Source: Candidatus Saccharimonadota bacterium
GTDB lineage: Bacteria > Pseudomonadota > Gammaproteobacteria > Enterobacterales > Enterobacteriaceae
Assembly: GCF_000090965.1 (NCBI RefSeq)
Contig: NC_008513.1
Coordinates: 180,001-212,000 of the forward strand
DNA: 32,000 nt
Reading direction: 5' to 3'
In this document: positions 3,320 through 24,571 of the stretch, piece by piece
Position numbering within the stretch: the first letter of the stretch is position 1
Layout: every line of letters begins with the position of its first letter
Made by a program: the position numbers and the translations under genes
The notes under the pieces: generated by a model
Told to the model about the DNA's origin: nothing
The model's input: the letters and a program-made list of their open reading frames with translations, nothing else
Databases searched by the model: none

Positions 3320-3347
3320 TTGACTTTTTTTTAAAAAAATATAATAT
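3320..3347 (+). promoter_or_regulatory. Candidate sigma70 promoter for the 16S rRNA operon
   Basis: TTGACT (3320-3325) is followed by a 16-nt spacer and TAATAT (3342-3347). An alternative TATAAT at 3340-3345 has only a 14-nt spacer. It lies ~140 nt upstream of the mature 16S 5' end and upstream of the boxA-like element. TTGAC is rare in this AT-rich DNA, but -10-like hexamers are everywhere. Confidence 0.35.
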
Positions 3348-3364: not shown

Positions 3365-3377
3365 TGTTCTTTAAAAA
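3365..3377 (+). promoter_or_regulatory. boxA-like antitermination element in the rRNA leader
   Basis: TGTTCTTTAAAAA compared with the E. coli rrn boxA TGCTCTTTAACAA (11 of 13 identical). It sits between the candidate promoter and the 16S processing stem. Confidence 0.5.
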
Positions 3378-3387
3378 AATATTTCAG

Positions 3388-3405
3388 AAAATTTATGCGG
3401 GCACA
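3388..3405 (+). other. 5' half of the long-range 16S precursor processing stem (RNase III-type)
   Basis: AAAATTTATGCGGGCACA is the perfect reverse complement of 5062-5079 (TGTGCCCGCATAAATTTT). The pairing is extendable by G-U, A-U, C-G and U-A pairs (3384-3387 with 5080-5083). The two halves bracket the mature 16S. Confidence 0.75.
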
Positions 3406-3486
3406 TGAAGATTAAATATTCAGATGTAAATTATTCATTATTAATTTTAATTAAAAAAAAATTAGTTTTGTAATAAATAGTTATAC

Positions 3487-5039
<1,553 letters not shown>

Positions 5040-5061
5040 AAATTTAAATATTTAGTTGGAT

Positions 5062-5079
5062 TGTGCCCGCATAAATTTT
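5062..5079 (+). other. 3' half of the 16S precursor processing stem
   Basis: Perfect 18-nt complement of 3388-3405. It lies 22 nt after the 16S 3' end and 16 nt before tRNA-Ile. Confidence 0.75.
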
Positions 5080-5095
5080 TTGATTTATAAAAAAC

Positions 5096-9224: not shown

Positions 9225-9905
9225 TTATTCTACCTCTAATCTAATTAATGCATTTTGTGCTGCATCTTGTTCTGCTTTTCTTCTACTTGCACCTATTCCA
9301 ATTAATAATTCTGATAATCCATCAATTTTACAATAAATAGTAAAAATTTGATTATGAGCTTCTCCATATATTTGTCCAATACTATATATTGGTAAAGAAA
9401 AATGTTTTGATTGTAGATATTCTTGTAATCTAGTTTTTGGATCTTTTTTTGTTCCTGTTGGATTCATTTTTTTGAAACGATTTTTATACCAATATAAAAT
9501 TATTCTTTCTACAGTATAAATATTACTGTCTAAAAATATACTTGCTATTATTGCTTCTATAGCATTAGCTAATATAGATTCACGTTTAAAACCACCACTT
9601 TTTTTTTCTCCTTGCCCTAATTGTAAATATTTTCCTAAAGAAAATTCAGTAGCAATCTCAGCCAGTGTATTACCTCTAACTAATGTAGCTCTCATTCTAC
9701 TCATTCCACCTTCATTCATTTTAGGAAAATGATGATATAATGCTTTAGCAATAATAAAACTAAGAATTGAATCTCCTAAAAATTCCAATCGTTCATTATG
9801 TTGAGAGCTTGCACTTCTATGTGTTAATGCATGTTTTAATAATGTTATATTTGTAAATGTATAACCGATAAATTTTTGTAATTTTTTCATCACTATTGGA
9901 TTCAT
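9225..9905 (-). CDS. rnc: Ribonuclease III
   Basis: 226 aa, the same length as E. coli Rnc. It carries the RNase III signature [13 protein letters not shown], the block [16 protein letters not shown] and the dsRBD block [12 protein letters not shown]...SRRKAEQ.AA. By eye it is very close to the E. coli protein along its full length. Confidence 0.95.
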
Positions 9906-22375: not shown

Positions 22376-22787
22376 GTATTTCCCTTATATAAATTTTTAA
22401 TTTTTACTTTAAATTAATTATTAATTATTTTTTATGAAATATTATTAAATATTATTATTAATAAATTTTTTAGCATCAAAAAATTTATAAAATTTATAAT
22501 ATATTTTTATTTAATATATAAAAATTTAATAATTTTATTTTAAAATTAGTATTTAAAATAGCTTATTACAAGAAATATTTATTTTTAAAAAATATTATTT
22601 TTTATAAAATTAAGATATTATAATAATTTTTATTATAAAAAACATCTATATATTATATATTTTATTAATAAATTTTAAATTTCTGTTATTTATGATATAT
22701 TTTTTATTATTTGAAAAATTTTTTAATATCTATTATGATATAATTTTTATTTATATAAATAATAAAAATAAGAAATAGGTATTTAAT

Positions 22788-23518
22788 ATGGCAGAGAAAA
22801 TTCAAAAAATATTATCAAATTGTGGTGTAGATTCACGTCGTAATATTGAAAAACATATTTTAAATAAATCATTAAAAATAAATGGAAAAATTGTACATAT
22901 AGGGGAAAGATTTTTAAAAAAAAATATTAAATCGATATTTTTAAAAAAAAAAAAATTTTTATAAAAAATGAAAAAACAAAAATACTTATATATCATAAGC
23001 CAGTTGGAGAAATATGTACTAAAAAAGATCAATATAATAGAATTACAGTTTTTAAAAAATTACCAAAATTATTTTTTTCAAAATGGATTAGTATTGGTAG
23101 ATTAGATATTAATACATCAGGTTTATTATTATTTACTAATTTTGGAGAATTAGCACATAGATTAATGCATCCTAGTTATAGAATAAAAAGAGAATATCTT
23201 GTTTGTGTTCTTGGAAAAATTTTAAAAAAAAAAATACTTTTACTAAAAAAAGGAATTTTGATTAATAATTCTATTTCTAAATTTCACGAAATTATTTTTT
23301 TAAAAAAAAAAAAAAAAAATCAATGGTTTAAGGTATCTTTGTTTCAAGGAAAAAATAGAGAAGTTCGTTTATTATGGAATGCTATTAATATCAAAGTTAA
23401 TCGATTAATTCGAATTAAATTTGGAATAATAACATTACCTAAATTTTTGAAATCTGGTTGTTTTTTTGAATTATCTTATCAAAAAACAAAAAATATATTA
23501 AGTTTAGTAAATTTATAA
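22788..23518 (+). CDS. rluB: 23S rRNA pseudouridine synthase RluB, interrupted by a frameshift inside an A13 tract (22943-22955)
   Basis: The ATG at 22788 opens MAEKIQKILSNCGVDSRRNIEKHILNKSLKINGKI.. (S4 domain, cf. E. coli [24 protein letters not shown]), which stops at 22962-22964. Frame 2 is open from the tract onward: IFIKNEKTKILIYHKPVGEICT...WISIGRLDINTSGLLLFTNFGELAHRLMHPSYRIKREY...GKNREVRLLW...RLIRIKFG. The catalytic GRLD Asp motif is intact. One extra A joins the frames. The ORF-track entry 23165..23518 is only the part after the first in-frame Met. Confidence 0.85.
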
Positions 23519-23604: not shown

Positions 23605-24426
23605 TTAATTTTTATAAAACAATTTTTTTTTATAAATTTTGCTTAAAAAACGTGTTTTTTTTAATATAAATTTTAATATATTTGAATAACCTACACATAT
23701 AGTTTTATTTTTAATATAATTATGTCCACCTAAAATATCTGTTATAAGAGCTCCAGATTCTTTTATCTGTAATTCCCCGAAAAAAAAATTTGATTTTTTT
23801 TCATTAAAACTAACATATGCATTAATTTTTCCAGAAGATAAATATGCTAAATCTAATATTGAACAACCAGATTGTCTTATTGAAATTTTTTCCTTTAATA
23901 ATTGTTGCATTAATGAAATATATAAATTGATATTTTTTTCATGTTTATTTTTATAATACAATGTTATAATTGTATTATAAATATTTTTATTATATTTGTA
24001 ACATCTAGTTCTAAAACCATTTAATTGAGCTCCTTGACCTTTAATTGCAGTAAATAAATCATTTTTTATTGGATCATAAATAACTGATATATATGTTTGA
24101 TTTTTTTCTTGTATAATAATAGATAAACAAAAATGAGGAATTTTTTGAATAAAATTTTTTTTTCCATTTAATGTATTAATTATCCAAATATTTTTGTTTG
24201 TTTGGATTTTTTCTTTAGAATCTATATTTAAAATATAATGTCTAGGGTATGATTGTTTAATCAAATTATTTATAATAGAAAAAGTTTTTCTTTTTATTCT
24301 TTTAATATACTTAAAATTTTTTTTTTTTTCTATATCACAAGAAATATTTTTTAAATCATAATTTTGTGCAATAATTTTTCCACCTGCTCTAATAGCTCTA
24401 ATAGCAATATTTAATATAGGATTCAT
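23605..24426 (-). CDS. suhB: SuhB (inositol monophosphatase family / Nus-complex factor), with degenerate catalytic motifs
   Basis: The protein is colinear with E. coli SuhB: MNPILNIAIRAIRAGGKIIAQNY vs MHPMLNIAVRAARKAGNLIAKNY, YDPIKNDLFTAIKGQGAQLNGFR vs YDPMRNELFTATRGQGAQLNGYR, and LDLAYLSSGK vs LDLAYVAAGR. However, DPLDGT is NTLNGK and WDFAAG is SNFFFG. Confidence 0.85.
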   Translation of the reverse strand: MNPILNIAIRAIRAGGKIIAQNYDLKNISCDIEKKKNFKYIKRIKRKTFSIINNLIKQSYPRHYILNIDSKEKIQTNKNIWIINTLNGKKNFIQKIPHFCLSIIIQEKNQTYISVIYDPIKNDLFTAIKGQGAQLNGFRTRCYKYNKNIYNTIITLYYKNKHEKNINLYISLMQQLLKEKISIRQSGCSILDLAYLSSGKINAYVSFNEKKSNFFFGELQIKESGALITDILGGHNYIKNKTICVGYSNILKFILKKTRFLSKIYKKKLFYKN

Positions 24427-24571
24427 ATAAAAATACTCTCTTGTTATGTTAATATTTACTGTTATAAGATAATTTTTATAAATAAAAGTTTACCTTTATT
24501 TTAAAAGATAAATTTTATATCTATTTTTATAAAACTATTTCTAAAGATAATTATATATATTGGAAATAAAT

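Follow-up and report, generated by a model that had tools for sequence, protein, structure and literature searches.

A SuhB orthologue with a dismantled catalytic site in Buchnera aphidicola BCc, probably retained as a Nus factor

The window analysed here is a stretch of 32,000 nucleotides of contig NC_008513.1, from a genome that we take to be Buchnera BCc, the symbiont of Cinara cedri. It carries suhB on the reverse strand, as well as a 16S rRNA gene with its leader and trailer and the gene for RNase III (Table 1). SuhB is both an inositol monophosphatase (IMPase) and a Nus factor, and which of the two activities explains its wide conservation has so far been argued from laboratory mutants of Escherichia coli. 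E. coli lacking suhB is viable but cold-sensitive. The original prediction, made from the letters of the window, held that SuhB is kept there with its metal-binding residues replaced. We find that the protein of BCc has lost its catalytic residues and kept the IMPase fold, that its gene evolves under ordinary constraint, and that the same loss extends over nearly all Buchnera examined. We argue that the protein is probably kept as a Nus factor.

Table 1. Positions of the features discussed, in window coordinates
Feature	Position	Strand	Description
suhB coding sequence	23605..24426	-	273 aa; E. coli SuhB orthologue, IMPase-superfamily fold, catalytic site lost
IMPase motif 1 remnant	24160..24186	-	W81-I-I-N84-T85-L86-N87-G88-K89 vs E. 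coli W-V-I-D84-P-L-D87-G-T89; codons read directly
EESG counterpart	24214..24225	-	I68-D69-S70-K71 vs E. coli E67-E68-S69-G70; E67I, E68D, G70K; metal-binding Glu lost
IMPase motif 2 remnant	23776..23793	-	S212-N213-F-F-F-G vs E. coli W211-D212-F-A-A-G; W211S, D212N
Most conserved block	24010..24078	-	Y117-D-P-I-K-N-D-L-F-T-A-I-K-G-Q-G-A-Q-L-N-G-F-R139; away from the active site
C-terminal helix K252-F-I-L255	23662..23673	-	equivalent to E. coli K251 and L254, NusA-AR2 contacts
Promoter-like site of the 16S operon	3320..3347	+	TTGACT-16 nt-TAATAT; hexamers align in three Cinara Buchnera leaders
boxA-like element, rrs leader	3365..3377	+	TGTTCTTTAAAAA; 2 mismatches vs E. coli rrn boxA TGCTCTTTAACAA
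Upstream arm, 16S leader-trailer helix	3378..3426	+	directly 3' of boxA; pairs with 5041-5089
16S rRNA gene	3488..5039	+	Rfam RF00177, 1546.7 bits
Downstream arm, 16S leader-trailer helix	5041..5089	+	just after 16S
rnc (RNase III)	9225..9905	-	NCBIfam TIGR02191, 232 bits vs cutoff 166; intact
rluB	22788-23518	+	frameshift near 22943-22955 in an A13 run

Identity and fold of the suhB product

The gene at 23605-24426 belongs to Buchnera aphidicola BCc and is orthologous to E. coli suhB. E. coli SuhB is its top match among PDB sequences, the two proteins are colinear over residues 1-259 (6ib7, 6tqn, 2qfl; HMMER phmmer, E 3.6e-54), and the gene is present in a single copy at a conserved genomic position. 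The alignment contains only two one-residue indels, both outside the catalytic motifs, which bears out the colinearity originally proposed. Pfam PF00459 matches the protein with an E-value of 2.5e-31 and 109.6 bits (cutoff 27), placing it in the family. The SuhB equivalog of NCBIfam, NF008027, is by far the best family, yet its score of 207.3 bits falls short of the cutoff of 332. Era, LepB, FabI, SppA and RlmN of the same genome likewise lie below their enteric PRK cutoffs.

The nearest named relatives of the window SuhB belong to Buchnera aphidicola of Cinara species. The BCc protein is 68% identical to the nearest of them, where ArgS reaches 72-73%, and its identity to free-living homologues is ~35% vs 48% for ArgS. 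These values fit a protein that underwent additional change at an early stage of Buchnera evolution and has been normally constrained since. The window has a GC content of ~18%. With 40 Lys vs 12 in E. coli SuhB, the protein has a strongly basic composition.

An AlphaFold2 model built with the Buchnera alignment as input (pLDDT 88.4, pTM 0.87) indicates that BCc SuhB keeps an intact, well-folding IMPase fold. Foldseek comparison of this model gives TM-scores of 0.80-0.85 to the SuhB structures 2qfl, 6tqn and 9jfc, and of 0.7-0.85 over IMPase and SuhB structures taken together; the best matches in the PDB, at 0.78-0.85, are SuhB of Pseudomonas aeruginosa and E. coli, chains of the rrn antitermination complex included. 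With the E. coli orthologue (2QFL, 6IB7, 6IB8, 6TQN/6TQO) the BCc protein shares 259 colinear residues at ~35% identity, TM-scores of 0.80-0.85 and the K251/L254 pair. The P. aeruginosa protein (8WDQ, 8WIP, 9JFC) is a regulator associated with RNA polymerase and the ribosome; it differs from BCc SuhB in having an active IMPase site, for which a substrate complex has been solved, and the two are only 27-28% identical. Human IMPA1/IMPA2 and the archaeal IMPase/FBPase have the same five-layer alpha-beta-alpha-beta-alpha fold, the G88-N91-F92 motifs and the GQGA..NG hairpin in common with BCc SuhB. These canonical IMPases, however, are obligate metal-dependent enzymes, and BCc SuhB fails the catalytic signatures.

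Loss of the catalytic site in Buchnera and other symbionts

For comparison, the 120 best homologues were aligned with E. coli SuhB, and SuhB of 37 named Buchnera (Lachninae, Aphidinae, Eriosomatinae, Fordini and Anoeciinae) was then set against SuhB of 69 free-living Enterobacterales. A search of cluster representatives added Buchnera of Mindarus, Thelaxes, Chaitophorus and Taiwanaphis.

The motif 1 codons of BCc read TGG ATA ATT AAT ACA TTA AAT GGA AAA, giving D84N, P85T, D87N and T89K in E. coli numbering, and AAT is the codon at all three Asn replacements (D84N, D87N, D212N). The original prediction had read motif 1 on codons 24186-24160, with IDSK in place of EESG and SNFFFG at motif 2, and had taken the ligands E67, D84, D87 and D212 to be lost. 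Direct reading of the codons and the alignment give the same letters, and the four ligand positions hold I, N, N and N. The damage goes further, since D44, E68, T89, E205 and W211 are changed too; the replacements D44K and E205S had not been listed before. Relative to E. coli SuhB, the BCc protein differs by E67I, D84N, D87N, D212N, D44K, T89K, E205S and R184Q. The metal-binding Glu (E. coli E67, human E70) and the water-activating Asp (E. coli D44, human D47) have become I and K. The inactive E. coli mutant that Chen and Roberts made in 2000 is said to be D87N, a change that BCc SuhB also carries.

These readings do not depend on the choice of register. The alignment is gap-free around both motifs, and no acid can be placed at a ligand position. 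The interval between G202 and G216 counts 13 residues in both BCc and E. coli SuhB; therefore, no shift can bring an acid to position 205 or 212. The register of motif 1 is anchored by W81, L86, G88, N91 and F92, all invariant in Buchnera, and with these anchors and no indels there is no alternative register that has an acid at a ligand position. We considered E209 of BCc (E. coli L208) as a substitute for D212 and rejected it: it is a single residue, present in 10 of the 37 Buchnera, and there is no indel to allow a shift of register.

The signature patterns of the family give the same picture. Signature 1, taken here as the PROSITE pattern [FWV]-x(0,1)-[LIVM]-D-P-[LIVM]-D-[SG]-[ST]-x(2)-[FY] and carrying D84, D87 and T89, matches E. 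coli and 69/69 free-living sequences and none of the 37 Buchnera, BCc (W-I-I-N-T-L-N-G-K-K-N-F) included. Signature 2, taken here as [WYV]-D-x-[AC]-[GSA]-[GSAPV] and carrying D212, is somewhat too strict in this form and matches 54/69 free-living and 0/37 Buchnera sequences. In IMPases, a single Asp-to-Asn or Glu-to-Gln change at these positions cuts activity by orders of magnitude. Judged by its residues, BCc SuhB has had its three-metal centre and its phosphate- and inositol-binding residues destroyed, and hydrolysis of inositol monophosphate is almost certainly impossible.

Catalytic loss is near-universal in Buchnera. All nine positions (D44, E67, E68, D84, D87, T89, E205, W211 and D212) are kept in 69/69 free-living Enterobacterales. 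In Buchnera, D84 has become N in 36/37 sequences. None of the 37 has D44, E68 or E205, and E67 and D212 survive in 3% each. T89 survives in 22%, with K in its place in 51%. At position 87 the Asp persists in 59%, while the Cinara clade and some others have N or S. Losses shared so widely among the subfamilies are most likely ancestral: the dismantling of the active site would date to the Buchnera ancestor, D87N alone being younger and confined to a part of Buchnera that includes the Cinara clade. The open reading frame is intact in all of the >60 Buchnera SuhB clusters recovered.

Similar losses occur outside Buchnera, in Ca. Profftia (two species), Ca. Ecksteinia adelgidicola, Ca. Erwinia haradaeae, Serratia symbiotica, Ca. 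Fukatsuia, Ca. Mikella endobia, a Plateumaris symbiont, an Arsenophonus symbiont of Ornithomya, Ca. Schneideria nysicola and Ca. Symbiodolus clandestinus. The alignments indicate that the active site was lost independently in at least ten non-Buchnera symbiont lineages. A search with a Buchnera profile over 1.84 billion cluster representatives returned 136 full-length sequences among the best 150, and 72 of these 136 have at least five of eight catalytic positions changed; the search is biased toward degenerate SuhBs, so that 72 counts lineages and does not measure prevalence. The original prediction had spoken of a dead SuhB in "this lineage". Its survey across Buchnera and reduced symbionts, now carried out, upholds the loss itself but not the restriction to one lineage. 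The literature searched, in which subscription journals were not covered, yielded no report of catalytic-residue loss in SuhB of Buchnera or another symbiont.

Two of the degenerate proteins stand apart in composition. That of Ca. Symbiodolus clandestinus shows no AT bias, and neither does a degenerate SuhB-like protein, which may be a paralogue, in the apparently free-living Pokkaliibacter sp. The phenomenon is therefore not confined to tiny AT-rich genomes.

Mutation bias was considered as a cause of this pattern. The original prediction had called each Asp-to-Asn change a single GAT-to-AAT step, in line with AT mutation bias, and the three Asn codons are indeed AAT. BCc SuhB has 15 acidic residues vs 32 in E. 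coli, and many non-catalytic acids are lost in Buchnera as well. Bias as a sufficient cause did not hold up, however. All 37 Buchnera have kept the acids at positions 24, 118, 123, 191 and 222, and mean retention is 0.12 for active-site side chains vs 0.49 at other positions invariant in free-living bacteria (Mann-Whitney p = 0.005). These comparisons indicate that neither chance nor AT bias alone is sufficient and that the loss is targeted. The pocket positions 44, 67, 68, 205, 211 and 212 are among the more variable Buchnera columns (entropy ranks 3-100 of 267, position 211 being the third most variable), amid which N84 (36/37), L86, G88, N91 and F92 are fixed. Fixed loop residues within a variable pocket point to a metal loop that is kept as a structural element with its chemistry gone.

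Three replacements are fixed and specific to Buchnera: N84 (window 24175-24177) in 36/37, Q21 in 36/37 and D24 in 37/37, the last two lying in the N-terminal helix. All three give the impression of positions under selection and not of relaxed ones; the new residues may be structural or may have co-evolved with a partner.

Selection on the gene was estimated as the ratio of nonsynonymous to synonymous substitution rates (dN/dS) in two pairs of Cinara Buchnera, all four genomes of which carry dead suhB alleles. NG86 puts suhB at 0.21 and 0.19 in the two pairs, and YN00 puts it at 0.10 and 0.09. The corresponding values are 0.23, 0.22 and 0.10, 0.08 for hisS; 0.18, 0.18 and 0.09, 0.07 for rlmN; 0.21, 0.28 and 0.12, 0.09 for trpC; and 0.21, 0.21 and 0.10 (YN00 for the first pair only) for trpD. 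NG86 clearly underestimates dS under AT bias, and only comparisons between genes are used; by these, suhB is indistinguishable from its neighbouring genes. Between BCc and its relatives dS is saturated, and dN is 0.21-0.22 for suhB, 0.16-0.18 for rlmN and 0.23-0.24 for hisS. The ratios indicate that suhB is under purifying selection and is not decaying. A decaying pseudogene, named in the original prediction as an outcome that would speak against it, is rejected by the intact reading frame, by dN/dS like that of hisS, rlmN and the trp genes, and by the confident fold.

Evidence for a probable Nus role and competing explanations

Structural and genetic work on E. coli offers a non-catalytic role for such a protein. 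There, the rrn antitermination/chaperone complex includes SuhB, which binds NusA-AR2 (PMC4807359, PMC6614797, PMC6614801). RNase III cuts the leader-trailer helix, and rnc interacts genetically with suhB and nusB (PMC4807359). Singh et al. proposed that SuhB holds the boxA/leader-trailer arrangement to the polymerase (PMC4807359). According to the statement in PMC6614801 that cites Chen and Roberts 2000, IMPase activity is not needed to rescue an E. coli suhB mutant, in agreement with the original claim that phosphatase activity is dispensable for the growth phenotype.

The RNA elements on which this complex acts in E. coli are present in the window. Like the E. coli genome, it combines a boxA-bearing rrs leader with a helix between leader and trailer and with a gene for RNase III. 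The original prediction had pointed to a boxA-like element in the rrs leader and to rnc; both are there, boxA being conserved across Buchnera subfamilies and rnc being intact. We compared the argS-rrs region of the window with those of four other Buchnera (two from Cinara, one from Acyrthosiphon kondoi and one from Anoecia corni). The boxA core G[CT]TCTTTAAAAA is identically placed in all five, which represent three subfamilies, within leaders that are otherwise divergent; in the A. kondoi and Anoecia corni Buchnera the element reads CGCTCTTTAAAAA. It lies upstream of the 16S processing stem. Directly after it comes a conserved leader arm, TCAGAAAATTTGTGTGGGCAC, which pairs with sequence just past 16S. 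The duplex of 3378-3426 with 5041-5089 has a predicted energy of -47.3 kcal/mol vs -16.3 +/- 3.0 in 300 shuffles, and it shows a compensatory change: BCc ATGCGGGCAC pairs with GTGCCCGCAT, and in other Buchnera GTGTGGGCAC pairs with GTGCCCACAC. Apart from the boxA core and the leader arm next to it, the rrs leaders of these Buchnera contain no well-conserved block. E. coli suhB is reportedly autoregulated through a boxA in its 5' region, as Baniulyte et al. described in 2017; upstream of the window suhB (24427-24559) no boxA-like element was found at ≤3 mismatches.

The protein also keeps the residues equivalent to the NusA contacts in the clade of the window. A double mutation of SuhB K251/L254 weakens the affinity for NusA-AR2 from 94 nM to 141 uM (PMC6614801). 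BCc has retained both contact residues, and all 11 SuhB of the Cinara clade read [KR]-x-x-L at 251-254. Across Buchnera, position 251 is basic in 34/37 and L254 is kept in 19/37. Retention of this pair supports a Nus role for the Cinara clade, and not universally. Elsewhere in the protein, 38 columns are invariant across the 37 Buchnera. They cover the N-terminal helix, W81, G88, N91, F92, P97, F99, the hairpin Y117-R141, G186 (BCc G187), L190-D191..Y194, E222 and G224; R183 is kept in 34/37. Within the 117-139 block the invariant residues are Y117, D118, P119, L124, F125, G130, G132, Q134, N136, G137 and R139. The blocks that the original prediction named as conserved (the N-terminal helix, YDP..LFTA.KGQGAQLNG.R and LDLAY) are all present. 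Most of the invariant columns are common to IMPases in general and are evidence for the fold, not for a particular partner.

Taken together, dead site, constraint, leader and contact residues make it probable that BCc SuhB is a pseudoenzyme of natural origin that has been kept as a Nus factor for the co-transcriptional folding and processing of 16S rRNA. In the mechanism we propose, the IMPase fold would have been kept while the metal and substrate site was dismantled in the Buchnera ancestor, and purifying selection would maintain the protein for its non-catalytic role. As in E. coli, SuhB would assemble with NusA, NusB, NusE and NusG where the emerging rRNA exposes its leader with boxA, and the Nus complex would tether the leader to RNA polymerase, allowing the correct folding of 16S rRNA and its processing by RNase III. 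We lean, with some reserve, towards a wider statement: that host-restricted bacteria have repeatedly turned SuhB into a long-lived pseudoenzyme, its chemistry discarded in the Buchnera ancestor and independently in at least ten other insect-symbiont lineages, and have kept it under purifying selection as a Nus-type factor of rRNA transcription and folding. The original prediction had this lineage keep SuhB only for its rRNA role. The dead site, the constraint and K251/L254 agree with that part of the claim, the Nus role itself is one that we infer, and the limitation to a single lineage falls.

Several observations weigh against this interpretation. Boxes resembling boxA at ≤3 mismatches number 16 in the window vs 25.8 expected at 18% GC, which is not significant by count; such a count is uninformative in AT-rich DNA, and the weight therefore rests on position and on conservation between species. 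The contact with NusA is not conserved throughout the dead SuhBs: the K251/L254 pair reads R/T in the Buchnera of Aphidinae, and those of Anoecia carry S or A together with E. R184 is not conserved in Buchnera and is Q in BCc; mutants of E. coli SuhB studied by Wang et al. in 2007 are said to link this residue to RNA polymerase binding. We infer the enzymatic inactivity from the residues, and the link of the Buchnera protein to RNA polymerase, NusA or rRNA by analogy with E. coli. In addition, suhB is listed as lost in the Buchnera of Calaphidinae and Phyllaphidinae (PMC11188193), and its role would be dispensable in some backgrounds.

Among the cluster representatives, R184, which lies in the dimer core of E. 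coli SuhB, is kept in 8% of catalytically degenerate vs 62% of intact sequences, and R183 in 83% vs 100%. It may be the enzymatic state, and not the function retained, with which R184 is connected.

Alternatively, a catalytically dead SuhB may be kept for another non-enzymatic function outside the boxA/Nus complex, such as an RNA-chaperone or ribosome role, a scaffold or a function born in the symbiont. Selection and an intact fold show just that there is some function, the AR2 contact dyad is altered in the Buchnera of Aphidinae and Anoecia, R184 is lost, and the fixed N84, Q21 and D24 could reflect a changed interface. However, the Nus/rRNA role is the sole well-documented non-catalytic role of SuhB (PMC4807359, PMC6614801, PMC6614797), the genomes concerned also conserve boxA and the leader-trailer helix, and the clade of the window keeps K251/L254. 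We regard this alternative as unlikely.

SuhB might also still be an enzyme, with a weaker or different phosphatase site rebuilt from Asn, Lys and other residues, or with another substrate. Asn carbonyls can ligate Mg2+, the metal-loop residues L86, G88, N91 and F92 are invariant, N84 is fixed and D87 survives in more than half of the Buchnera. Yet BCc has no carboxylate at any of the four metal-ligand positions, D44 and T89, which activate the nucleophile, are both Lys, and the variability of the pocket columns is unlike that of a conserved alternative active site. Continued catalysis is very improbable on these grounds. Least credible of all is a functionless relic, a slowly decaying pseudogene not yet disrupted: the low equivalog score (207 < 332), the reported loss of suhB in one Buchnera clade and a divergence from free-living homologues exceeding that of ArgS (35% vs 48% identity) would suit it, but many other BCc proteins also score below enteric-level NCBIfam cutoffs, the frame is intact in >60 Buchnera clusters despite the ancient loss of catalysis, dN/dS is 0.1-0.2 and equal to that of an aminoacyl-tRNA synthetase and trp genes, 38 columns are invariant, the predicted fold is confident, and unneeded sequence does decay in this very window, where trpDCBA is deleted and rluB is frameshifted.

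If SuhB is indeed kept as a Nus factor, BCc has done in nature what was done by design in E. coli. The engineered inactive SuhB, as PMC6614801 cites Chen and Roberts 2000, likewise separates phosphatase chemistry from the growth and rRNA function. It differs in being a single laboratory substitution, whereas BCc has a natural allele with the whole site dismantled. Unlike the engineered mutant, the dead Buchnera allele is most likely older than the divergence of the sampled aphid subfamilies and is repeated in other symbionts. The orthologue of a known dual-function protein thus appears to have been reduced, naturally and repeatedly, to one function, which confirms the existing view of SuhB and overturns nothing. 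Genome-reduced lineages drop the chemistry of SuhB and keep the protein at the constraint of a tRNA synthetase. This would be comparative, independent support for the transcription and ribosome-biogenesis role as the reason why suhB stays in genomes, and the enzymatic activity would then matter only in free-living life. The dead SuhBs would form a panel of separation-of-function alleles and a natural mutational scan of the ribosome-biogenesis surface. Whatever is kept in every dead SuhB would be a candidate for that surface in the rrn complex, for example the N-terminal helix, the 117-141 hairpin, the residues R183, G186 and E222 and, in many clades, K/R251. The current annotation as inositol-1-monophosphatase is very probably wrong as an enzyme assignment for these genes. 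In a metabolic model of Buchnera APS, nothing links the SuhB reaction to the rest of the network, and it was omitted for that reason only (PMC2649895).

Gene neighbourhood and further observations

The window contains flhA, argS, rrs-tRNA-tRNA, dnaQ, grpE, tadA, acpS, era, rnc, lepB, lepA, mnmA, fabI, rnb, lipB, lipA, sppA, yciA, yciC, rluB, suhB, rlmN, hisS and others; nusA, nusB, nusE and nusG are not among its genes. A scan of metagenome contigs with an AT-codon-biased NusA motif (A-C-V-G-M-R-G) returned 120 marine AT-rich gammaproteobacterial loci of ~40% identity and no Buchnera. Scanning genome contigs with the SuhB alignment gave mostly free-living Enterobacterales and two Buchnera-like loci.

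The order glyA-hisS-rlmN / suhB / rluB is common to the window and four other Cinara Buchnera, in which the region reads pgl-glyA-hisS-rlmN / suhB / rluB-trpD-trpC-trpB-trpA-yciC. Compared with these four, the window has lost trpD-trpC-trpB-trpA, and 412 bp of non-coding DNA (22376-22787) lie between yciC and rluB. In the Cinara cedri consortium tryptophan synthesis is known to be outsourced, which the deletion fits. Together with the frameshift in rluB, the deletion indicates that the genome loses or damages genes at the suhB locus while suhB stays intact.

We considered rluB as a decayed pseudogene and dropped the idea, as it has a single frameshift, in A13, and both halves are well conserved. 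Residues 1-50 and 62-243 align to RluB of Cinara Buchnera in two stop-free frames (54% and 69% identity, tblastn), and the catalytic GRLDINTSGLL motif is intact. Frameshifts in poly(A) tracts of Buchnera can be rescued by transcriptional slippage, and rluB may still be expressed. With a single frameshift in rluB, the contrast in decay with suhB is weaker; the trpDCBA deletion is still a valid contrast.

One further SuhB came to light on JBPBPJ010000067.1, a contig of 32.5 kb labelled "MAG: Janthinobacterium lividum", that is, as part of a metagenome-assembled genome. The protein is 61% identical to that of BCc, far above any free-living homologue, and the contig looks like one of a Cinara-type Buchnera that was mis-binned into the Janthinobacterium assembly.

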